Positions 1,153 through 35,997 of a DNA stretch of 64,000 nucleotides are shown piece after piece; the stretch's first letter is position 1; each line of letters starts with the position of its first letter. Location: NCBI GenBank assembly GCA_000002435.2, contig CM018789.1. The stretch is one strand, 5' to 3'. This DNA comes from Giardia intestinalis (lineage: Eukaryota). A program made the position numbers and the translations under genes. Below the pieces are notes generated by a model. The model had not been told where the DNA came from, searched no databases, and saw nothing but the letters and a program-made list of their open reading frames with translations.

Positions 1153-4100
1153 CTATTTACTGCTACCAGTGTCAGATTGCCGGCCTATATTCGGTGGGGT
1201 CCTTGCGCGTGCCTTCGTCAACTGGTCCTCTAAGTCTACGATGGTGGCCTGTTGTTGCTGTACTCTTGATGCCAACGTTTTGCTTTCCGTGAATAGCCGG
1301 TGCATGGAATCGTCGGTACGACTTATCTGTCTCCTAAGGTCATCGTTTTCGGCCCGTGCTTCTTGAAGGCTGCTCTCCAGAGTCGTTGCTAACTCCCTTA
1401 CCGCACTGGACTCTTGGCTAATCCTTGCGATCTCCTCATTTAAAGCCTGTATAGTGTTCTTATCTGCTTGTTGCATTTCTTGGAGATTAGCCAGCTCGGT
1501 CCTGAGTCTCTCGTTTTCTTGAGTTGTAGCACCACCCTTCTGTGCAGTGGATGAGTCAACCGCTGAAACTGAGGAGAGGATGCTCTGAGTATTCATCGAT
1601 TGACGCAGCTGCTCATTTTTGTATAGCAGCTTTTCAATCTGTCGCGTTCCATTGTGTGCGGTTTCTGTCAGAAGATTTAGATCTTGTCGCAAGTTCCTGT
1701 TCTCCTCGTTGAGCTTCTCTATCATGGACAAGGCATCCATATGTGCAGATGAAAGGTCTTTAAGCTGATCCTGCAGCAGGGTGTTTTCTGATCGGAGATC
1801 CACCTCTAGAGATCCTAGTTTGTGTTCCAGGTTCCTTGCTTCCTTGATTTTTTCCCTAGCTGCAGTTAACTCGTCTGTAGATTGCTGGGACTGTCGCTGC
1901 TGATTTTCACGCAGATACTCGGTTTCTTCTTGCAACCTTTTAAGAGATGCGTTAGCTACTTCCAACTGTTGTAGTAAATCAGTCCTGGTATTGGTAAGCT
2001 CGAAGATTTCCTTCTTCAGATCAGACAGTGTGACGTTCAAAATGTCTATTTGTGTCCTTTTCTCAGTTAATTGAGCAGTTAGATCAGCAGTCTCAGATGC
2101 ACTGTTAGCGAGAAGGCGTTCAAGATTGAGAATTTTGACTTTGAGCTGCGCATTTTCTCTGCCCAGCTCTTCCTTACAAGCCACACCTGTCTCCGCGTCT
2201 TCTTCCCTCTTTGCCAACATTGCCTGCTGGGCCGTCATTATTTGCCGGAGCTGCTTTTGGAGAGCAGCCGTCTCAGCAGATGAATGAGCTAAGGAGTCCT
2301 GAGTCTCCTTTAATCGCGCTTCTAGGTCAGCCTTTTCGGCCACGTGCTGCTGCCGCTCAGTCTGTAATTGAAGGAGTTTTGCAGATAGCTCATTATTCTG
2401 TTTGATCAATTCCATGCTTTCCCTAGACGGCTCACTAGAGAGAACGCCAAGTTGAGGAGACACAGAATGTGTGGGGGATTGTGAGGCAGAGTGCTTGTTA
2501 CTGGCAGAGCGCATACTGGTTTTTATCTCCAGGAGCGTCGTTTGAGCCAATTGCAGCTCGCCCCGCAGCTGCGTGTTTTCTAGTGTAAGCCGCTTAGCAA
2601 GAGATTCGTCTGTGGATGCTTTTGCTTCTATTTCACCCAATCTGTTCTTTAGAATGCTGTTTGTCTCTGTCAGCTCCTTACATTTTTCGTCAGCTTCTGT
2701 CAGTCTTTTTTGCGTCAATGAAAGTGAGGCAATTGTCTCCGAATAGTTTTTCTTCTCTGTTTCAAACAATGACTTAAGAGACGTGTGTTCCTGAAGTAAC
2801 CCTTCATAACGTGCCTGCACCTGCATGAGTTCCTTTTCTCGGCCCTGTGATGTGGTTTCGTTTACGGCCAAATCTGTTTGAAGGCTTGTGATCAATCCGC
2901 TACTCTTTATTATTGATGCATTTTGAGTGGTAAGCTTATTCTGCAAGAGGCTGATCTCCTCCTGCTTCGATGTCAGAGTCTCCGTTAACAGCTTGTTTTC
3001 AGCTTCGTAGTTTTTCAGCGTACGCTCCAGAGCCTCTTTCAGTTCAGCCTGAAGGGCTGTTTCATGTTTCGAGGAGCCTAGTTTTATGTTCATTTCACTC
3101 AGCTGAGCTTCGTAGCTCACTAGTTGATCTTTATAGGCCTCTAACCTGCTTTCGAGATCCTTTATTAGGCGCTTTTGCCTAGCCAGATCTTCCTCAGTGG
3201 TAGTATGCTTTTCCTGCAAAGATCGTGTCTGCTCAAGGTTGTCCCGTTTCTCTCTATGCAAGGCTTCGTTAAGCTCCTTCATAGAGCTATACTGAGAAGA
3301 CAACTCCTCACAAGTCATTTCCTTTTCCTTATACTTTCGAGAAATCTCTGCAGTAGTGGCCTCCAACTCTTGTAGCTGACTCTTAAGTCTTGCATTTTCT
3401 TCGCGCAAAATTGCATCCGGCATGGATGCTTTACCCTGGCGAATGGTCTTCTCTGTTATTTGTGAAAGAAGATCGTCAATATCTTCTGGGGATCTACTCC
3501 TAGCGTCAACCTTGAAGGATTTCAGCCTTTTCAAAGTTCCTTCAATCATGAGTATGAATTGATCATACAATATCTGCTGCTGGGTACGGTTTCTCTCCAA
3601 TACTAACTCTGCTGTGCATTTATCTAGCCATGATTGAGCAGTGTCAAGTGTGCTGTCTTGGCTCTCCTGTTCCTGCTCATCGTTCAACCTTTGATGCGCA
3701 GGAACAGAGGGCTGATTACTGGAGTATTGAAAATGAAGACTCTGGGGAGTGTAGATTGCCGGAGATTTCGATCTTGATGGACACCTTTGGGCGGAGATGG
3801 AGCCAGTACCAGGGCGGAGAGCTGGTTTGGTGGATACAAGATGGCTGACGCTGAGTTTGCTACTTGACGTGTCGCCAGAGGTACCAGATGCAAACCGAAC
3901 ACCAGGGGATGTCCGGGAGCGACTGTGGCTATGACTGCCTGGCCTGGAGATATGTGCACCATACACTGGATCAGTAGGCGTATAGTTTGGTGTAAGGTCT
4001 TGTGTCGATTGATGCCACTCTGTAGGACCGCTTGTCTGCTGGCCAAGATGTGTCTTGCACTGAGTAGATAGTGAAAGATAATCTGGTACGTCCAGAGCGC

Positions 4101-20290: not shown

Positions 20291-20621
20291 AGTGGTGACG
20301 CGCGCAGTAGACCTTAGTGGTTACATGACTCAGCAGTCTTCTGTGAACAAGAGCTTAGCACTGCTGGGTTCACTTTATCTTGGCAGACGGCTTCATGACG
20401 AGCCGCAGCATCGACTCCATGGCTTGTTGCAAGAACACCGCTGGCCAAGAGCACTGTACAAGAGAATTGGCACCACGAGCACATTAATATAGAAGTGGCT
20501 GATGGACAAGACTAGGGAGACTCTCTGGCCACTGACACTGTTCGTTGTTATTGCAATCCACATTACAATATTATTAAACCCCTGTTCGTGTTGAGTACGC
20601 TCGCGGCGAACCGCCAGCTAG

Positions 20622-21230
20622 ATCGATAAGTGCGAAATAGTCGGTGACGCAGAGATCTGCACCCAGTGCAACGGAGATGGGTCTCAATCTGCCCCGACGG
20701 ACGGAGTGTGCTCAGCAGACAATAACGAGTGTACCCGGAAGCAAGATGGGAAGTGCACACAGTGCGCTAATAGGTCCTTCATGTACAAGGGCGGATGCTA
20801 CAAGGATAGCCAGGCACCTGGCAACACGATGTGTGAAGCAGCAAATGCTGGAGTATGCACACAGGCTAAGGAAGGGTACTTCCTGCTACCAGACGCAGAC
20901 GACTCTCACCAGTCGGTCATACCGTGCGGAGATGACACAGTAGTAACAGTTAGCGGCGATAAGAAGTACAAGGGCGTGCTGCACTGTACTTAGTGTAATA
21001 CACCTGACGCAGCACAGGATACTACTACTCCCAAGGCTGCCACTTGCACGACCTGTGAGGATGGTTTCTTTGTAGATAGTAGTAATAGATGCACTGCTTG
21101 TCCGGAGAACTGCCTGACCTGCACTGGTAAAATAGTCAAGGAAGAAGCCGACGGGGCAACTGCTTACATTGCTACTAATGACTGTATTCAACTTTCTAGT
21201 GAAGGCCCAATCTTTTTAATCCCCGTCTCT
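20622..21230 (+). pseudogene. VSP (variant-specific surface protein) pseudogene fragment: 5'-truncated, one in-frame TAG, 3'-truncated
   Basis: The reading frame from 20622 gives ...CTQCANRSFMYKGGCYKDSQAPGNTMCEAANAGVCTQAKEGYFLLPDADDSHQSVIPCGDDTVVTVSGDKKYKGVLHCT*CNTPDAAQDTTTPKAATCTTCEDGFFVDSSNRCTACPENCLTCTG. This is collinear with the N-terminal third of the intact VSP at 31678-33528 (CGSCKDGYFMYKSGCYNSGGSPGNEMCTSAPEGKCSTPAAGYFIIPTTDADASHQSVVSCSD...KIYKGVEGCAECT). There is no ATG or signal peptide, no TM helix and no CRGKA tail. The frame is broken by a TAG at 20991. Confidence 0.7.
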
Positions 21231-21914
21231 GAGGGGTTTGTCGTCTCCTGTTTCTATCTGCAGCCGCGCCGGGGACAGAGCGGCTCTCGCGGGGCCAGGC
21301 ACCTGGTGTCCTGGGCGGCGCCGGGTCTGAGTGGGTATGCGCCTTCAGCACTGTGGGCGTCCCCCGTCCCTCTCCTGTACAAGGGATCGGTGATGCGTAC
21401 CCCCTCGGTCTGCGTGCGGTTGTCAGTGCCCGTGCCTCGTGGTACCCCGGCTCTTTCAGCCCCAGCTGTCGTGGCGCCCTGCTCCGGCCATATCCCCACG
21501 AGGCCGCGTATTCTTCCATGGGACGGTCCTGGTTCCGTAGAGGCACGCCTGGGCCCACGATTCTCCCTGCGGAGGCCCCGTTGTCTGTGCTACTGGGGTC
21601 TGGGCCATCCGTCTGTACCGCTGCTTCAGGAGTCACATGAGTAAACTGCCTTTCACGTGGCTTTTTATAGAAGTAGACACTGATTGTAATCAACAGGGTC
21701 TAAAGATCTCTCGCCAATTGTACATGTCAGATCCTGTGGATTTTGGAATCCTTGGGTAGCATCCGTGCCCGGCTGATACGCGCGCCTCGGGCTCAGCAAG
21801 CCTGCCGCCCTCCTCCTCTTGCCCCCTGCGAGGACGCCGCCACTGGCTAGGCGCGTGCACAGCTTGTCCATCCGGCCCTTGAGAAGAGCCACATCACACG
21901 AGGAAGGGCGTCGT

Positions 21915-22721
21915 TTACTCGAGGAGAGAGGCGATTGCGTCGTGGCCATGCCTCCTTGCGATGTCGAGGGCGGTGGTGCCGGGCGGGAAGCCGAACCACT
22001 CACGGGTGGTCTGCATGCCCTTCTCCTTGTCCATCAGGAGCCTCGCACACTCCAGGCGGCCACTCTGCGCTGCATGCATGAGCGCTGTCCATCCATTGTT
22101 AGTCTTCATGCCGTCTTCTTTGTCTATTAGAAGCCTCACGCAGTCCGAGCAACCGTTGTCGGCTGCGTGCATGAGGGCAGTCCACCCACTGTTGGCCCTC
22201 ATTCCGCATTCCTTGTCCAGTAGAGCCTCCGCACACTCACAGCGCCCATACTGTGCTGCATACATTAGGGCGGTCTTCCCATCATCCGTTTTCATGCCAC
22301 CCTCCCTCTCCAGGAGGAGCTGCACGAACTCCAGTTTGCCGCGCTGTGCTGCGTACATAAGGGCAGTGGTGCCGTTGTTCCTCCTTTTGCTGCCTTCCCT
22401 CTCCAGCAGGAACTTCGCGCATTCCGGGTGGCCCCCGTACGCCGCCCGCATGAGCGCGGTCTCTCCAAGCTTATTCTGTGTGCTACCTTTCATCTTCAGC
22501 AGAACCTTCACGGCTCTCAGGTTTCCATACTCTGCTGCTGACATGATGTCGGTCTCGACGAAGCCGTATTTCAGCAACAAAAAAGACGAGAGACTCAGCC
22601 CGCTCCTCCCTTGTTGGTGGTAAAACTCTGCGGCTTCATCGATGCTCCTATCAGAAGCAGACCCCTCGGTGTCCTGAGAGCGACGACTCATTTCCGAAGC
22701 CCCAAGCACGTCGCTCGACAT
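21915..22721 (-). CDS. Ankyrin-repeat protein of the Protein 21.1 family (about 268 aa)
   Basis: About six repeats of 33 aa of the Giardia type (TALMxAAxxGxxExVxLLxxxEGG). The ORF track starts at a TTG (22871) inside GC-rich DNA. The first ATG (22721) is preceded by the initiator aagttaaaaATG. Confidence 0.8.
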   Translation of the reverse strand: MSSDVLGASEMSRRSQDTEGSASDRSIDEAAEFYHQQGRSGLSLSSFLLLKYGFVETDIMSAAEYGNLRAVKVLLKMKGSTQNKLGETALMRAAYGGHPECAKFLLEREGSKRRNNGTTALMYAAQRGKLEFVQLLLEREGGMKTDDGKTALMYAAQYGRCECAEALLDKECGMRANSGWTALMHAADNGCSDCVRLLIDKEDGMKTNNGWTALMHAAQSGRLECARLLMDKEKGMQTTREWFGFPPGTTALDIARRHGHDAIASLLE

Positions 22722-22879
22722 TTTTAACTTCGTCTGCTTGCAGGAAGACACTGCCACGGAAACACACACTTTGCTCTCTACTTCATTGAGAACGGTTTGC
22801 CAACTGCTGTCCGAGCATCTCCGTGGGAGCCGCCGCGCTGGGTGGGTCTCCGCTCGCCGTCCGGGGTCCAAATCCAGAG

Positions 22880-23940
22880 TCCGAGGTCGGATGCCCTCGA
22901 TCCCGGCGGAAGAAGAACTCCTATGTCTGCCTCCCCTGGAAGCTGCCGCTCCTCGCGGTGCCCCCTAGGACTTTCCTTCCTTTGGCTAGCTTGGGTCAGC
23001 TCCGTCTGATATCTAGTGAGCACCTGCTATCTCGGATCTTGCGTCAGTCGCGACGATCTGGCCTCCACAGAATCCAAGGCCCTGGTGCTCCATGACGAAG
23101 ATCCCACGCCACGACCCCGGGTGTCCACCCCGTTCCTCGGGGTGCCTCTTCGTCTCCTCGTGGAGGGCACCATCTGTTCCATTCTCAAGGGTGCGCTCCC
23201 CATGCGCCTCTATCTTGAGGTTGTGGTACGCGTTTGTGGATGCCGGCGGAGCACTCCCATGCGTTGTGTCGGGGGAGAGGCCCACCTCTCTGCTCATGGA
23301 TCGCAGAGGTGGTCTGTCACCCAGCACGAGATCATGTCGACGCCCACCCTGTGCAGTGCGTCTGGCTCGGCTGACAGTGTGAGCTGCGTCCATCTGACAG
23401 CACACTTGGAGATGATGCTTCGGTCTGTCGAGGCAGTCAGTCCAGGGCCACCCCTCTGAAGGGTGTCATATGAAGTATCAAGAGCGATCAGGACAGGTTC
23501 ACCGAAGTCGTCTCGCTTGGCGCTCATCTACTCGAGGGTGTCAGGCACTGCCAGCTGCTGCGGCAGACCCTAGGTAGGTGACCCAGACCACCACTCTCGG
23601 TGCGGGCAGGATCAGTCCGCCTCTGCCAGCCAAGCACCCCAACTCCCATCTCTTGTCGAGGGATTCACATGGGTCACGTGTGGATCCATCTCGACCAGCG
23701 TGACAAGTGATTAGTGCCATCACTGGCTTCAGGCTCTCCGTTGCCTTGGGCGTTCCTTGAGACCAGCCAGGAAGGAGGCCTCCTGCTTCTCAGTGTTCCT
23801 ATACTTGTCAGTGTTGACCGTCGAGCCATGTCGCTTCATCAGGCCTGCCGCCTCTGTGGCTACCCCCGTTGCGTCACTGTCGTCACTGTAAAAGATGAGT
23901 GTGTCGTCAGTGTAGGCAATGAGCTTGAAGCGGCTCACTA
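22880..23940 (-). mobile_element. Possible degenerate, 5'-truncated non-LTR retroelement remnant containing a reverse-transcriptase motif-C fragment
   Basis: The short minus-strand ORF at 23729-23938 encodes LIAYTDDTLIFYSDDSD, a tandem Y-x-D-D pattern that matches the RT active-site motif followed by hydrophobic residues. The surrounding 1 kb is GC-rich (unlike nearby genes) and lacks any long ORF, consistent with frameshifted decay. The extent is uncertain. Confidence 0.3.
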
Positions 23941-28601: not shown

Positions 28602-29029
28602 GTGGGTTTTTATTGACTGTGAATTATAGATCCGATTGGGCAATCAATTGAGTTCACCATAGAATTTCAAAGGAATGATGTGTAGTAATGTAAGTCTCAG
28701 TCCATCTAACTAGGAGATATTCCGTATCTGACGATAGAGGGATCTGTTGCAATTGGCGCAACTGATGCCAATCAGCCCTCTCACACGGATCGGATATGTT
28801 TTATCATACTGTAAATCTGACTATATGTCCACTTAGAATCCATATTAATACTCCTAGGCTCGTCATTGTTCAAGAATAAATATGACACTGTAATAGACAG
28901 TTGCACTCAGAATAATCTTCTTGCAGACTGGGACACAGATCAGTTGTTCTCTTCAAGGCTATATTGAACCAAAACCATCTATAGGCTTTATATGCTGATG
29001 ATTCACTCCACTCACTGGTTGTTTCCGGT

Positions 29030-29650
29030 GCTTTGCTGATGGGACCCTCGTCTGGGTGTGGTCCAGAGGTCTCACGAGTGACCCTCGCTCAATTCCTGGC
29101 CAGTCCGGAGACAAAGGTCGACTTTGGATAATATAACGAGAGAGTCCTCTCCAATGATATGTCCAGAGCCTGGTGCGCTCCTCGGTCGTTCCACAAGCGT
29201 GTGCTCAGACCGAATGCGTACATCGGTCCTTTAGGGGTTCAGCTTACTTACCCATCTGCGTCGTCCACCAGTGGCGCCTCTCCTTGGTCTTCCTTCACGG
29301 TGGGTGAAGCTCTGGTCGCCGTCTTTTTTAGATGCTCCCGTCTGACTCGGTGATTGCTGTCGGGGCTCTCCACTGGCCGCCCCTCGGTGTCCATCCGGCT
29401 GTGGTTCTGGGCAGTGGTCCCACAGTCGCGGTTACCTGGGTCCCAGTGGGCCAGCTGGTGGGGAGGCTGGGGTTGCTGGGGCGGTGAGGCCGGAGGGGAC
29501 TGGTGGGACCGGGGGCGGTGTTCATATGTGCCCCTGGGTCTGGTGGGCCATTGGGGTGGTGGGGTGATCGCAGCTGTGGTGACTGGGGGCTGTCCATCTG
29601 TGACTCACCCCTCTGTGTGCTCGTGGTCTGTGAGTGCCTCCACCCAGACA
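29030..29650. repeat. Left arm of a large inverted repeat. Core 29163-29404 is 100% identical to the reverse complement of 31272-31513
   Basis: Compared directly base by base. The outer and inner flanks are alignable but diverged, with indels. Confidence 0.85.
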
Positions 29651-31009
29651 ACACTCAGGAGCCGTGCACACCGGGACAGAGAGGGTGACCAAGGGGAGTC
29701 AAGCAGCCCTGCCATGAGAGTGCACAGCAACCAGCCTGAGCTGTAGAGTCTGCTCGAGCGATGGTAGTGGCAGACGACTCCCTCTGACAGCAACCCTGGT
29801 GACTGCACTGGTCTGCTCTCGAGGCTGAGTGACAGTGTGCACAGATGGACATGAGTGCAGGAGGACCATCCACACACGAACAGACTGTGTGGACCCAGAG
29901 AGGACTGGAGTCTGCTCGGGACACGCTGACTGTGCCCCGTACGAGAGTGTCAGGCAACCACCCGAGCACCCGAGAGGCAGCAACAGACACGGGCACTAGA
30001 GATCCCCAGCCAGACACATTGCTATGCCCATCCACAGGGGCATCAGAAGGCCAGGTGGGGTCACCCTCACAACCAGGACCTGATAGGAAGCCAGAGGACT
30101 CAAACACTACAGCAGAGCAGGCCCAAGGGAGGCACACTCCAGGCAGGCGAGCAGTGGCAGAGCCTTGATAGCTGCCATCCACCCCCATGACACCTATAGC
30201 AGGCACCAGACTCACCGAAGGCTCCGCTGGCCTCCACCGATGACCCGAGGGGACAGCGACCAGAGGAGTGAGGAGACCTTCGGATGACACAAGAGGCCGG
30301 CTGTCCAGCAAGCGATGGAACACAGGTGACCTCTGAGCACCATAAGGCACAGAGCCAACCATCAGAGTGATGCCCGATCACAGAGACGACCACGAGCACC
30401 CTCCACCGCACTCTGAGGGGCTGTCAATCATCCCACTGCCTCTCATAGCAGACCTCCTTAAGGGCAGTGCAGTGGGGCCCAGCTCATGCAGGGAGGTGCA
30501 CACCCCTCAGTATAGGACACCCCGGCTCTCCCCGAGGGGTCATCAGAGCCACGAGGAGGTGTCAAGGTCCTGGTAGACCACACCGAGAACTCCCGAACAG
30601 GCACAGCAGGTGATGTTGGGTGATCCTCAGCGTGCTCCTCTCTGATGGTAGAGCATCCTGAGACCAAGGGGGCTCACCTCTGCCTATGAACAACACACAG
30701 CACTCCACAACGAGGATCCACCAGGAGCAGCACAGCTGACCACGGGGACAGTGCAGCCACCCGGTACCCCACCGTGCCAGTCTTCTGGGCCATCACACTA
30801 GAGGCCTGAGAGAACCCCATCCCATCCACAGGGTCATCCATGCCCCTGCTAGCCCGAGGTGAACTACCCCCGTCGAGGCACTGGACAGGGCATGCCAGGG
30901 GCCCAGCAGACCCGCACAGAGCAACAGGAGAGGCTACGATAGCCTGCCTCACCCTTCACGTACTAGTCAAACAGAGAGGTAGTACTGCCTGAGGCATGCA
31001 GAGGCCAAG

Positions 31010-31650
31010 GGAGGCGCTCAGTCAGGGGGACACGACACGATCGTCGGTGTCTGTGTCTCGGGAGTGCAACGAAGGCTGGGGATCAGACACAACCACCTTG
31101 GCAAACAGAGCGGGGATCACCCACCACCCCAATGGCCCATCAGACCCAGGGGCACATACAGACATCACTCCCAGTCCCCTCCAGCCCTCACCGCCCCATA
31201 CCCCGCCTCACCCATCATCCGAACCCGCTGGGACCCAAGCGACCGCGACTGTAGAGCACTGACTCGAGCCACAGCCGGATGGACACCGAGGGGCGGCCAG
31301 TGGAGAGCCCCGACAGCAATCACCGAGTCAGACGGGAGCATCTAAAAAAGACGGCGACCAGAGCTTCACCCACCGTGAAGGAAGACCAAGGAGAGGCGCC
31401 ACTGGTGGACGACGCAGATGGGTAAGTAAGCTGAACCCCTAAAGGACCGATGTACGCATTCGGTCTGAGCACACGCTTGTGGAACGACCGAGGAGCGCAC
31501 CAGGCTCTGGATGTATCACTGGAGAGGATTCTCTCGTTATATTATTCACAACCAGCCATCGTCTCTGGACTGGTCAGGAAGGAGCGATGATTACCCACAC
31601 GATCTCTGGACCGCGCTCAGATAGCCCCAGCAGCACATCTACATAGGCTA
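31010..31650. repeat. Right arm of the inverted repeat. Ends about 15 nt from the VSP polyA signal
   Basis: Reverse complement of the left arm. The short ORFs 29328-29654 (-) and 31064-31345 (+) end with the identical peptide ...GGQWRAPTAITESDGSI, which confirms the mirror symmetry. Confidence 0.85.
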
Positions 31651-31663
31651 CATAAAGTAACGC

Positions 31664-31670
31664 GTTTACT
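31664..31670 (-). terminator. VSP polyadenylation signal AGTAAAC
   Basis: The minus strand reads GKA-TAA-cttaggt-AGTAAAC, the characteristic arrangement at VSP 3' ends. Confidence 0.6.
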
Positions 31671-31677
31671 ACCTAAG

Positions 31678-33528
31678 TTACGCCTTCCCTCTACATATGA
31701 ACCACCAACACAAGAAGCCTATGAGACCACCTACAACAACAATCACAGCAACGGAGATCCCTGCTATGGCCCCTGTGGAGAGGCCACTCTTGTTTGTACT
31801 ACCACCGGTGTTATCATCACCACCACTAGTGCCGTCTGTTTTGACATAGCAAGTAACAGAGCCACTACCACCAGCCGGAGGAGCGCAGCTTATGCAATTA
31901 GGCACACCAACTATTCCGTTGGCACTAGCATCACACTTCACGCAGCTACTTCCGGACTTATAGTATCCGGGGAGGCATTCTGAGCATGCTTTGGGACTAC
32001 CACTAGTCGCGCACTTTGAGCACCCATCCGGACACGCCGGGCAGGAACCCGAAGTGGTATCTGCTGCTTGCCCATTGGCACATGTCTGGCACTTTCCATC
32101 GCTAGCCGTTGTGCACAGCGTATTACCCGGAAAGGCTCCGGCGCTGTAGCACCCACCCGATTGCAGGAAGTATGAGCCTGTACACGCAGTACATACTCCG
32201 TCACCCGGCGTGCATCCAGTCGGCGCCCTTGTCGTTGTCGACACACAGACGCCGTCCACTGGGACGTATCCGGCCTTGCACCTGCTGCAGTACTTGGAGC
32301 CACCTACGACGGCCTTGCACTGGTCAGCCTCGCAGTTCTCTGCGTACCTTCCCGTGCACTCTTTTATGCACGCTCCTGTGTCACCAGACGACCGATTCAG
32401 CACAGACCCCGGATAGCAGGCCGTGCACGACGCTTCTGCGTCATTGCTACAGCTTGCGCACGACTCGTGGCAGGGGGTGCACACCTTGCTGTTGGCATAC
32501 ATCCCGGCAGGGCAGGCTGTTAGACACGCGTCCTTCAGGGGGCTCAGGTTGTGAGTGGTGCACTCAGAGCACGTGATTAGTGGGCCTGCGCTTGCAGGAG
32601 TTGCCTTGAGAGAGCACTTTGCACAATCCTCTATGCCACCATTGACAGTATCGCTGCACTTAGCACACACCTTCTTGCCCTGTGCATCGGCTGTGGGGAA
32701 GAATCCATCCTTACACTCCTCTGCGCTAACACAAGAGGTTGTCCCCGATTCTGTCTTCAGATATTTGTCTTGATCACATTTTTCACAGACAACCTTAGTA
32801 TCATATGTGCATTTGACACAATTTGGCACCCCTGTCGCGGCTGGAATTAAGCTTGCTTCAGGCGAACTACACGACTGGCAAGTCTTTAGCTGCTTTCCAC
32901 TTGTTGCTGTGTGCCCGAAGTATCCTTCCGGGCATTCAGTCAGACATGCAGTTCCACCTTCGATTGGGGCGTGTAGAAAGTCAGTCGTACACTTAGTACA
33001 GGTCGCGGTGGTAGCTAAGTTATCTAGTGTGCATTCAGCACATCCTTCCACGCCCTTATAAATCTTGTCGCTTTTCCCGTTCGCTCCCTCACTGTCACTG
33101 CACGACACGACAGATTGATGAGAGGCGTCTGCATCTGTTGTTGGAATGATGAAGTATCCAGCTGCAGGAGTGCTACATTTTCCTTCAGGTGCACTAGTAC
33201 ACATTTCGTTCCCTGGAGAACCTCCCGAATTATAGCATCCGCTTTTGTACATGAAGTATCCATCTTTACAAGATCCGCACTTTCCTTCAACTGGATCAAT
33301 GCACTTCGTATTTGCTTGATCCGTTGCACTCACTACACACGTTCCGTCAACAAGGTGTTCGTTATCCACGGAACATTTTGAGCAATAAGGCTGTTCTCCT
33401 ATGGATACATCACAGTGACCCTTTTTACACTTAGTAGTGTCATGAGTCCCCGGATTTCCATCATCTTCCAGGCACGCTGCCCAAGCCAATTGCAATATGC
33501 AGTTTGCGAAGAGAATTTTTTCGAACAT
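31678..33528 (-). CDS. Variant-specific surface protein (VSP), intact (616 aa)
   Basis: N-terminal signal peptide MFEKILFANCILQLAWAA. Dozens of CXXC motifs and GGCY motifs. C-terminal TM helix followed by the invariant CRGKA-stop tail (...FLCWWFICRGKA*). AGTAAAC polyA signal 7 nt after the stop. Confidence 0.95.
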   Translation of the reverse strand: MFEKILFANCILQLAWAACLEDDGNPGTHDTTKCKKGHCDVSIGEQPYCSKCSVDNEHLVDGTCVVSATDQANTKCIDPVEGKCGSCKDGYFMYKSGCYNSGGSPGNEMCTSAPEGKCSTPAAGYFIIPTTDADASHQSVVSCSDSEGANGKSDKIYKGVEGCAECTLDNLATTATCTKCTTDFLHAPIEGGTACLTECPEGYFGHTATSGKQLKTCQSCSSPEASLIPAATGVPNCVKCTYDTKVVCEKCDQDKYLKTESGTTSCVSAEECKDGFFPTADAQGKKVCAKCSDTVNGGIEDCAKCSLKATPASAGPLITCSECTTHNLSPLKDACLTACPAGMYANSKVCTPCHESCASCSNDAEASCTACYPGSVLNRSSGDTGACIKECTGRYAENCEADQCKAVVGGSKYCSRCKAGYVPVDGVCVSTTTRAPTGCTPGDGVCTACTGSYFLQSGGCYSAGAFPGNTLCTTASDGKCQTCANGQAADTTSGSCPACPDGCSKCATSGSPKACSECLPGYYKSGSSCVKCDASANGIVGVPNCISCAPPAGGSGSVTCYVKTDGTSGGDDNTGGSTNKSGLSTGAIAGISVAVIVVVGGLIGFLCWWFICRGKA

Positions 33529-34002
33529 TAGCTAATAGCAGTAAGGAGTGTCCGAAAGATAGTCTCATCCTGCGCTTGCTCCTCTGCTCAGGCCCACGGT
33601 CTCCTGTCTCTGGCACTGAACCCTGAACTATGTGCTGGGCGGGCTTCAGAAGCGAAGAGCGGCGCACACTGTGAACGAAGAAAAACTGCAAGGTGAGACC
33701 ACAATTCTGCCATACAAGATCCCCTATAGCCACACGCTCATCATCAAAGTTCGATTTATTCCATCTAGATGAGCAAATGATACTTCGTACCTGTATCGAA
33801 TCTTAAACGTCTCGCCCACGCATTACTTACGTCGCTAAACCACCGTTCTGAGGGCGAGATATCTTTCAGCATTTATAACCAAAAAATTAAGCTCACCCAA
33901 AGTCAACGGAGCGCCAGCTACGTGTTATGGGCAGCGAAAGTACCAGAGCCAAAGAGTTCCTCTGATCGCCTGGCCGGAGCACATTTGTGATCTCCTATAC
34001 CT

Positions 34003-35997
34003 TCATTTAATTAGCGTCCTCTGGGAGGATGCATTCACCAGCCAGCCTGCTATAGTGCGGGGCGCAGACCACAAGTCACAGGGTGCTCCATGATATACTT
34101 CTGTAGTGGTGTCTGAGAGTTCGACTTGCAGGGCCTCGGCAACCCTAGTAAGGACCTCCACACGTTCTTCATCAGATCCAAATAGATCACACTCTATCGT
34201 TGACGGACCCCTTGTGCAATCATACGCAGAGATAATTAGAAGAGAGAAAGTAGTATTTGGCAGAGAGAGACCGTTTGAGACGAACTCATCCAATTTGATG
34301 GCTTGGGAGTTGTGCGCTGCAGCCTGAGAAATTGACGCCATATACCCCTCTGAAAAGGTGCACAGAGATGTTCGTCTACGAAACTGGCCAGCTTTAGATA
34401 TTTCAACATCGGGGACCATGTCTGAAAGATGCATCACGTAGTCGTGTATCTCTGTGTACTTTCCTGTGTCATATACGTAACTAGCCAAGCTAAAGGAGGC
34501 GATTACCGACTTTACAGGTTCTAACTTTCCTTCCTCATTCTGCAAGATAGCTGCTGAGGCATTAACACCAAATAACGCTTCTAAAACAAGATGTTGTGGG
34601 AAGTAGTCTATTCCAACTACCTCATCCACTGGTACTACAAGAGTTTGTAAGGCTCTGGCTGCCAGCTTAGCCCAAGTGAGACACACCGAGGTCCCGCTAC
34701 CATGGCCCACGCAGGTAAATCTCACCCTCTGTGAAATTAATTCTGTGGAAATATTTTGCTTGGCAAAGCAAGCCTCGATATGTCGAGCATCAGTCAACTC
34801 ATATTGTTTCGAGTCAGGATTGTATCTTGCAGGCAGCTGGCAACGCTCGCGAAGGTCAAATATCAACTCAGCTGCGAGCAGAAGAGCTATATTATTCACC
34901 ATCTTGGCCTCTGTGACAAGCTCCAGAGGATACTTCCCTACACTGGATGACCCATATCCGGGTCTATCTACGAGGACATAAAGGCACCCATATGGGTCCA
35001 GTGCCGATGCATTGCGAGCCAGAGGTAGAAGGGTGGTGCTGTCCTGCCCTTGATCATGAAGCATAATAGTTATGCAACTGTAAGTGCCTGAATCTTCTTG
35101 AGTAGACCTAGCGATGTCGAGACTCGCCGAAGATATGTATCTTCCTGTTTGCATCTCATCATCAACATAACTATACAGGATAACTGAGCGGCTTGTCAGG
35201 GATTTTGAGGAGGACGTGGCCAATAAGTAAGTCTGTGAGCAAAGAAAAATGTGGATACAAAGGGATAAAATTAATAGGATTGCTACTATTGCTAATCGTG
35301 CCGTTACTGGGATATTAGATAGTCTGGATGTCTTTGGTTGCTCGACAGTACTAAGAACGTCCTCAACCTCAGGCTGGTCGAAGAGTAGCGCGTTATCACC
35401 TTCACATTGAGCCCCATTATAACCGCCATCAGATACTTTTGAGGGGTCAAAGCAGGCCACCTCCGCCCTGGTGGATTGGCTTGGGGTTAAACTCTCGATT
35501 GGTGTTTCCGAAAGCAGAGATGCGGTAGTAGATGGAGCAGTCTGAGTGTTGCGAAGTTTGTGCGATAAATGACTTTGTGCAGAAATCCAGAGAACACTTA
35601 TGTGTAGAAGGATGGCTGTACTTAAATAGACCACTGCTGCGGAGACATACCTAAGAGCATATGTCATAAATATATCCACTCCTATCTTCAATACGGCTAT
35701 GACACTGATAAAGATTAACTCAAGAGAAGACTTACGGTTTCTGAAAAATATCACGGCAATAAGTTCAAAGAGCACAGAAAATGCATCAAGAGCATTGGCA
35801 ACAGCCATCCAGAGAATCATCCACGGGCCTATTGGTGAACTATAGTCCATGACACCCACAAGTGGAAGTGATTGCGCAATAATTCCAATAACAGATTGGA
35901 GGGTTCCTATTACTGCGATACACGTAAGGCAGAGCTCAACGATGAACAGAGAGCCCTCCCTGGTGCAGGCCCCGGGGCGCCTAAAGGCAGCCGGCAT
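34003..35997 (-). CDS. Multi-pass membrane protein (about 5 N-terminal TM helices) with a C-terminal alpha/beta-hydrolase-like domain (664 aa)
   Basis: Hydrophobic helices in the first 150 aa. DRPGYGSS (abhydrolase D-x-x-G-x-G-x-S box) and VGHGSGTSV at the nucleophile-elbow position, which is degenerate relative to GHSxGG. ATG at 35997, 12 bp from the upstream gene's stop. Confidence 0.65.
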   Translation of the reverse strand: MPAAFRRPGACTREGSLFIVELCLTCIAVIGTLQSVIGIIAQSLPLVGVMDYSSPIGPWMILWMAVANALDAFSVLFELIAVIFFRNRKSSLELIFISVIAVLKIGVDIFMTYALRYVSAAVVYLSTAILLHISVLWISAQSHLSHKLRNTQTAPSTTASLLSETPIESLTPSQSTRAEVACFDPSKVSDGGYNGAQCEGDNALLFDQPEVEDVLSTVEQPKTSRLSNIPVTARLAIVAILLILSLCIHIFLCSQTYLLATSSSKSLTSRSVILYSYVDDEMQTGRYISSASLDIARSTQEDSGTYSCITIMLHDQGQDSTTLLPLARNASALDPYGCLYVLVDRPGYGSSSVGKYPLELVTEAKMVNNIALLLAAELIFDLRERCQLPARYNPDSKQYELTDARHIEACFAKQNISTELISQRVRFTCVGHGSGTSVCLTWAKLAARALQTLVVPVDEVVGIDYFPQHLVLEALFGVNASAAILQNEEGKLEPVKSVIASFSLASYVYDTGKYTEIHDYVMHLSDMVPDVEISKAGQFRRRTSLCTFSEGYMASISQAAAHNSQAIKLDEFVSNGLSLPNTTFSLLIISAYDCTRGPSTIECDLFGSDEERVEVLTRVAEALQVELSDTTTEVYHGAPCDLWSAPRTIAGWLVNASSQRTLIK

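Follow-up and report, generated by a model that had tools for sequence, protein, structure and literature searches.

Giardia intestinalis WB C6 carries, in the 64-kb window that we analysed (the whole stretch of DNA, hereafter the window), a large inverted repeat lying against the 3′ end of an intact gene for a variant-specific surface protein (VSP), and the locus raises the question of whether such a structure is a source of regulatory RNA, a mobile element or a product of recombination. We assign a probability of about 0.78 to the following answer: positions 29034–31635 are a copy of the ~2.65-kb non-coding spacer that separates the two members of tail-to-tail VSP pairs, here with a single VSP, and the perfect core of its arms is a recent gene-conversion patch. 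The structure is real, and it is a recombination-prone, VSP-associated inverted duplication of a known class and of modest interest.

The window contains no other inverted repeat of 60 nt or longer. Self-BLAST, which the original prediction for this locus had proposed for defining the arms, was run and aligned one arm with the other at 86.6% identity over 531 nt (E = 2e-177), far beyond chance, and in a gapped alignment of 29034–29578 against 31635–31106 470 of 548 columns were identical with gaps counted (~86%; Table 1). The predicted structure therefore exists, although the exact pairing proposed for it (29163–29404 with 31272–31513) lies on a diagonal that is 3 nt off and gives 171 mismatches; on the correct diagonal a perfect core is indeed found, of 243 bp instead of 242 bp. 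Outside this core the arms are ~75–80% identical to each other. The predicted outer limits (~29030 and 31650) agree with those of the alignment, whereas the inner limits had been placed at 29650 and 31010, and the enclosed DNA, put at 1.36 kb, measures 1,527 bp. Likewise, the right arm had been said to end within ~15 nt of the VSP poly(A) signal AGTAAAC, and the end of its alignable part (31635) is ~29 nt away. The adjoining gene is intact as claimed, its 616-aa open reading frame (ORF) matching a WB C6 VSP exactly, with the stop codon at 31678–31680 directly after CRGKA. The whole block has ~60% GC against 44–49% in its surroundings, and on the plus strand A greatly exceeds T across the interior and the right arm (29579–31635), with the skew mirrored in the left arm. 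This A/T strand asymmetry is common to all copies of the element described below, whichever side bears the VSP.

An error of assembly or polishing that made a false palindrome in the reference is, in our estimate, close to negligible as an explanation. It comes to mind because VSP pairs are known to disturb assemblies (Adam 2010, PMC2996952), and the right-arm copy of the core has no independent confirmation, the short-read contig P0019 spanning only 32695–34043, i.e., outside the right arm. However, the unique left flank passes into the core at 100% identity in four short-read assemblies made from different runs, the independently assembled genome of isolate DH has the same two-arm architecture at the orthologous locus, and both arms are likewise present in L013, one of the related copies introduced below. 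The structure is thus no assembly artefact, a danger that the original prediction had named, and the independent short-read contigs cover the left flank and run into the left copy of the core.

The dimensions of the element are those of published VSP-pair spacers. Identical tail-to-tail VSP pairs of WB (vsp1267 and others) have ORFs 2,393–3,222 nt apart, including 2,687 and 2,670 nt (Adam 2010, PMC2996952), and the 3′ flanks of a pair are nearly identical up to an abrupt divergence 318–572 nt past the stop codon (Table 5 of the same paper), while the spacers of different pairs, 2,648 and 2,649 nt in length, have nearly the same sequence (Rodriguez-Walker 2022, bioRxiv 10.1101/2022.03.07.483299). 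In the window, the VSP stop codon and the outer end of the left arm are 2,644 nt apart, or ~2,686 nt if the 42-nt 3′ untranslated region (UTR) is mirrored, and both values fall within the stop-to-stop range of ~2.4–3.2 kb. The inner end of the right arm (31106) lies 572 nt past the VSP stop codon, a point inside which the two sides are unrelated, so that the abrupt divergence falls within the published 318–572 nt, although the arms, at 86%, stay below the published near-identity. The locus departs from the class in its genes: instead of two VSP ORFs tail to tail, the window has the right-hand VSP only, and the left neighbour is a NEK kinase gene.

Homologous spacers with a VSP on either side were found elsewhere. 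A search of the translated longest interior ORF against a protein collection returned nine frame-shifted pseudo-proteins, and their contigs, plus one orthologue look-up, gave seven related copies (our labels L012, L013 and L015–L019). L013 aligns with 28989–31815 over 2,875 nt at 84%, both arms included; its own arms are 87% identical over 369 nt. A VSP 3′ end flanks it at one end and a Mec-17 tubulin acetyltransferase gene at the other, which is the same one-VSP layout as in the window. In L012, L015 and L018 the left-type arm runs on into VSP 3′-end sequence, and in L017 it reaches sequence just 3′ of a VSP stop codon, whereas the window, L013 and DH have their VSP on the right-type arm. L016 comprises only the interior and stops where the arms would begin, as would be expected if identical arms interrupt a short-read assembly. 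L012, L013 and L016 stem from a single sample, in which the VSP groups with a protein of the A2 isolate DH, and are therefore paralogues within one genome. Each of the seven copies whose outer flank has been sequenced lies next to a VSP 3′ end or to the sequence immediately following one. As judged from these alignments, the module can bear a VSP on either side, and the window holds a one-VSP version. Among its alternatives the original prediction had listed the relic of a tail-to-tail VSP pair; this reading, widened to a variant of such a pair, is the one that the evidence supports, given that the published geometry fits and that homologous spacers bear a VSP on the side that lacks one in the window.

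Among all copies the interior is 90–95% identical in a star-like pattern, while the arms are 72–87% identical and have many more indels. L013 had also been considered as an orthologue from another assemblage and was rejected as such, its distal neighbour being the Mec-17 gene and its sample carrying a DH-like (A2) VSP; the true A2 orthologue is L019 (DH, AHGT01000007.1). In L012, a second, truncated arm at 191–478 stands in direct orientation and is joined to the interior at the position equivalent to 30655 of the window, which indicates rearranged or nested module copies. When JGI metagenomes were scanned with a 20-mer that is conserved across all arms, the single match was due to chance and unrelated to the element.

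Table 1 Features of the inverted-repeat element and its surroundings in the window.
Feature	Coordinates	Strand	Basis or remarks
NEK kinase gene with ankyrin repeats, XP_001709064.1	26544–28601	−	Translation, Pfam matches on the called gene, exact WB C6 protein match
Distal tail of module, 45 nt, non-palindromic, common to L013	28989–29033	.	Window–L013 alignment begins at 28989
Left (VSP-distal) arm, 545 nt	29034–29578	+	Gapped alignment, BLAST
Block strongly differing between WB and DH	29050–32612	.	Both arms, interior, ~310 codons of VSP 3′ end
Left copy of 243-bp perfect core, putative gene-conversion tract	29162–29404	+	Perfect run on diagonal p + q = 60673
Unique interior of spacer, 1,527 bp, non-coding	29579–31105	.	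60% GC; plus strand A 26%, T 14%
Right (VSP-proximal) arm, 530 nt	31106–31635	−	Gapped alignment, BLAST
Right copy of 243-bp perfect core	31269–31511	−	Perfect run on the same diagonal, paired with 29162–29404
VSP poly(A) signal AGTAAAC	31664–31670	−	Between stop codon and right arm; sequence reading and motif scan
Intact VSP gene, 616 aa, cysteine-rich, ends CRGKA, XP_001709063.1	31678–33528	−	Translation; exact WB C6 VSP match

The perfect core itself is best understood from an alignment of four arms, two from WB and two from L013, in which the informative sites were sorted. At 49 sites the two arms of one locus carry the same base while both arms of the other locus differ from it; 46 of the 49 fall inside the arms, nearly all of them at 29184–29393. 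In the outer arm parts (29044–29160) the differences follow position across the loci instead, separating VSP-proximal from VSP-distal arms. The locus-specific agreement in the arm centre means that each locus has homogenised the centre of its own arms, which bears the signature of arm-to-arm gene conversion, the process that we infer from this pattern. Ongoing gene conversion, as originally proposed, is therefore upheld by the variants that the two arms share within WB and within L013. The arms of DH are 79.6% identical to each other with a longest perfect run of 43 nt, and the WB core is ~79% identical to the orthologous DH left arm; with the core diverged in DH, the 243-bp tract is specific to the WB lineage.

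The other option of the original prediction, namely that the core is held identical by selection on its sequence (e.g., as a protein-binding site or functional RNA), is highly improbable. What would recommend it is a 243-nt perfect run inside arms that are otherwise so diverged, together with a sub-block of ~75 nt (~29265–29340) that is well kept in the compared arms (86–96% identity to WB in the 29300 bin). However, the core is only 73–87% identical to the sampled arms elsewhere, none of them above 87%, it is no better kept in the DH left arm, it has no match in Rfam, the perfect core is missing from the DH orthologue, and in L013 this region is homogenised as well, but to another sequence.

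Comparison of WB (sub-assemblage A1) with DH (sub-assemblage A2) pointed to exchange on a larger scale. The DH locus matches in gene order and in its two-armed spacer, and likewise has the right-hand VSP only. On the NEK side the two genomes are 96–100% identical up to 29046, where identity drops abruptly, and the distal tail (28989–29033) is 98–100% identical to its DH orthologue. Inside the block that follows, identity in 50-nt bins is 44–92% in the arms and ~78–100% in the interior, and the 3′ part of the VSP has no significant nucleotide match until identity returns to 97.5% at 32612, in a long BLAST match of the right flank. Correspondingly, the two VSP proteins match over their N-terminal ~300 residues and are diverged over the remainder. 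A divergence of 10–25% between flanks differing by 2% cannot be the work of point mutation, and these alignments suggest that the block was replaced, or converted patchwise, from paralogous modules since the A1/A2 split; the arm alignments are mosaic, in line with patchwise exchange. Two further features of DH were noted. The annotation splits its VSP into two ORFs (409 and 218 aa), though the gene aligns to the WB VSP in a single frame, and a ~90-nt insertion at the left edge of the interior (at ~29655 of the window) is missing from WB and the other copies.

These observations fit together in a scheme in which the arms would be inverted duplicates of DNA lying 3′ of VSP genes, the left one ending in the 45-nt tail beside the promoter region of the NEK kinase gene. 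Being inverted repeats 1.5 kb apart, the arms would recombine with each other, and in the WB lineage their centres would have become identical through a recent non-crossover conversion tract, at least 243 bp long. The module as a whole, along with the VSP 3′ half, may also exchange with paralogous modules at other loci. The structure would act at the level of DNA, as a substrate for recombination that contributes to the turnover of VSP 3′ halves, and not via RNA. A left-hand VSP would once have existed at the locus.

Several observations weigh against this assignment. A left-hand VSP remnant was sought by tblastn with two VSPs, which gave nothing better than E = 2 in 28644–31677. The 45-nt distal tail, which is not VSP sequence, is common to WB and L013 in different genomic contexts, so the one-VSP form itself has been propagated, and from this sharing it may be a long-standing variant that has spread, or may even represent the ancestral state, in place of a local relic. 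The link to the WB tail-to-tail pairs is drawn from published dimensions and from metagenome or DH-like copies. Concerted evolution of the arms is expected equally from selection for pairing, and sequence alone cannot fully separate the two. Finally, the interior is less diverged between copies than the arms are, which neutral decay of a whole-unit duplicate does not predict; possible reasons for this contrast are that arm-like sequences 3′ of unpaired VSPs form an older and larger pool, that repair in the palindromic arms is mutagenic, or that the interior is under constraint.

A mobile element is very unlikely, although the locus has some of the expected traits. A foldback-type or terminal-inverted-repeat transposable element inserting beside VSP genes would have long terminal inverted repeats, as is the case here (~545 nt); the unit is also multi-copy and dispersed, with a star-like interior identity of ~92%, and its distal end is the same in WB and L013 although their genomic surroundings differ. 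A direct repeat, CATCTA(CA)TAGGCT, stands just outside the two ends of the module at 28976–28987 and 31636–31649 (12/14 nt). It is probably not a target-site duplication, having no counterpart in L013, and a search for such duplications at the outer edges, as had been suggested, found none. Furthermore, the element has no transposase or other coding capacity, and its arms are more diverged than its interior, whereas transposase-bound termini are expected to be conserved. Each copy whose outer flank is sequenced also borders on a VSP 3′ end or on sequence directly past the stop, and the homology enters VSP coding sequence. The foldback-transposon alternative of the original prediction hence fails both on target-site duplications and on independence from VSPs.

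The element is non-coding DNA. Variable sites of the interior are spread over the three codon positions as 95/99/100, i.e., with no codon periodicity, and the indels are mostly of 1–2 nt. The spacer had been described as free of ORFs; there is in fact a 235-aa ORF at 29655–30362 (−), although comparison of the copies shows it to be non-coding, which leaves the description right in substance. An exact-protein look-up of this ORF gave no record, and a search for protein remnants in the block with Pfam, on nine ORFs or ORF-derived proteins, gave none. We interpret the long stop-free stretches as fitting the strong skew in base composition. Structured RNA was equally lacking in the scans made: Rfam had no match to the module even at E ≤ 1, tandem-repeat and tRNA scans were negative or trivial, and consensus folding of the interior in 200-nt windows, with four to eight copies, gave alifold z-scores of −2.2 or weaker against a column-shuffle control that is crude.

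The remaining explanation concerns RNA. It holds that a read-through VSP transcript folds into a stem of ~545 bp (243 bp of it perfect), which is diced, and so regulates the VSP in cis or the module loci in trans; we consider this unlikely. It draws on the in silico folding energy of the joined arms, about −1,022 and −988 kcal/mol on the two strands, on the central arm part that WB and L013 both keep complementary, and on the long alternative VSP 3′ UTRs that have been reported (Rodriguez-Walker 2022, bioRxiv 10.1101/2022.03.07.483299). In addition, a motif scan found the poly(A)-signal-like AGTGAAT at 29001–29007 (−), in the sense orientation of the VSP and immediately past the left arm; this motif is also kept beyond the distal arm of L013, at about 3045–3055. 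Against it, the arms begin ~29 nt past AGTAAAC and hence lie outside the normal VSP mRNA, and the transition mismatches between arms show no bias on either strand towards those that G:U pairing would tolerate (22 G:U-compatible vs. 21 A:C in WB, 25 vs. 33 in L013). The low identity of the DH arms to each other likewise counts against it, and for action in trans, 72–87% identity between loci leaves few perfect 26-mers. As for small RNAs, 55 of the 105 Argonaute-associated small RNAs in Table S1 of Saraiya 2014 were compared with the window and none maps in it with up to four mismatches, a result to be read with the caution that repeat-derived reads are often discarded. Moreover, the genes flagged as the endogenous small interfering RNA (endo-siRNA) region SRI belong to another locus. 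A more specific version, a regulated read-through unit in which the poly(A) signal is skipped, the transcript ends at AGTGAAT, the ~545-bp hairpin in the 3′ UTR is cut by Dicer with destruction of the VSP message in cis and production of small RNAs, and conversion keeps the stem, is a shade less likely again.

A separate observation arose from the small-RNA comparison. Many of the Giardia ‘miRNAs’ (microRNAs) of Saraiya 2014 Table S1 cluster on CH991767 at 1.35–1.39 Mb among putative DNA polymerase genes, and those genes are the ones flagged as endo-siRNA region SRI in a later study. This suggests that the CH991767 cluster is one large siRNA-producing element and not a set of separate miRNA genes.

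As for the genes around the element, the NEK kinase gene is its left neighbour and has its 5′ end towards it, and on the far side of the VSP lies GL50803_006579 (34003–35997), an exact protein match to WB C6. The NEK kinase, the VSP and GL50803_006579 are consecutive WB C6 genes (GenBank accessions KAE8301850, -851 and -852), so nothing is annotated between the NEK gene and the VSP. An Rfam scan located the H/ACA small nucleolar RNA (snoRNA) GlsR27 at 33890–34002 (+, 143 bits), where it occupies the gap between the VSP start (33528) and the GL50803_006579 stop codon (34003), which places a snoRNA gene upstream of the VSP. Further to the left, at 20505–21110 (+), there is a VSP pseudogene fragment with 35–37% identity to intact VSPs and without a 3′ end, after which comes a second GC-rich block (21200–23900, 58–59% GC) with an ankyrin-repeat ORF at 21915–22871 (−). 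By BLAST this block of 21.2–23.9 kb has no kinship with the inverted-repeat module, and there is no second copy of the module in the 64-kb window.

The analysis assigns an unannotated 2.6-kb palindromic block of the WB reference to a known class, the spacers of inverted VSP pairs. It also adds three observations that we did not find in the literature examined: complete two-armed spacers occur with a single VSP too, at two or more loci; the arm centre is homogenised independently at each locus; and the whole module plus the VSP 3′ half has been exchanged between A1 and A2, within flanks differing by ~2%. The finding by itself is no advance on how VSP expression is silenced; if it is general, however, the modules would mark hotspots at which VSP 3′ halves are swapped, which bears on the diversification of the antigen repertoire.

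Gene conversion between arms homogenises human Y-chromosome palindromes and plastid inverted repeats. Such large structures resemble the element in the concerted evolution of inverted arms around a unique spacer and in perfect tracts bounded by older divergence; unlike them, the element is much smaller in scale, its arms are only partly homogenised, and the whole module also seems to exchange with paralogues. Hairpin endo-siRNA loci known from animals and fungi, and the endo-siRNA regions of Giardia (Liao 2014, cited in PMC11080815), are alike in having a long inverted repeat that could yield double-stranded RNA if transcribed; the published region SRI maps elsewhere. The closest relatives are the WB tail-to-tail pairs (PMC2996952; 10.1101/2022.03.07.483299), with the same ~2.65-kb spacer, the same inverted 3′ flanks that are similar for ~500–570 nt past the stop and then diverge abruptly, an interior that is likewise non-coding and unannotated, and spacers that are similar between loci. 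They differ from the window in being nearly identical throughout, where the window has arms of 86% identity with a 243-bp perfect patch, and in having two VSPs, where the window has one and its distal arm ends in a 45-nt non-VSP tail beside a NEK kinase gene. In Giardia muris, the spacers of identical VSP pairs hold NEK, ankyrin or zinc-finger genes or pseudogenes, whereas the spacer in the window is without coding remnant; yet these head-to-head and tail-to-tail pairs share the inverted layout, and recombination or gene conversion has been invoked for the gene family there as well (Xu 2020, PMC7641422).

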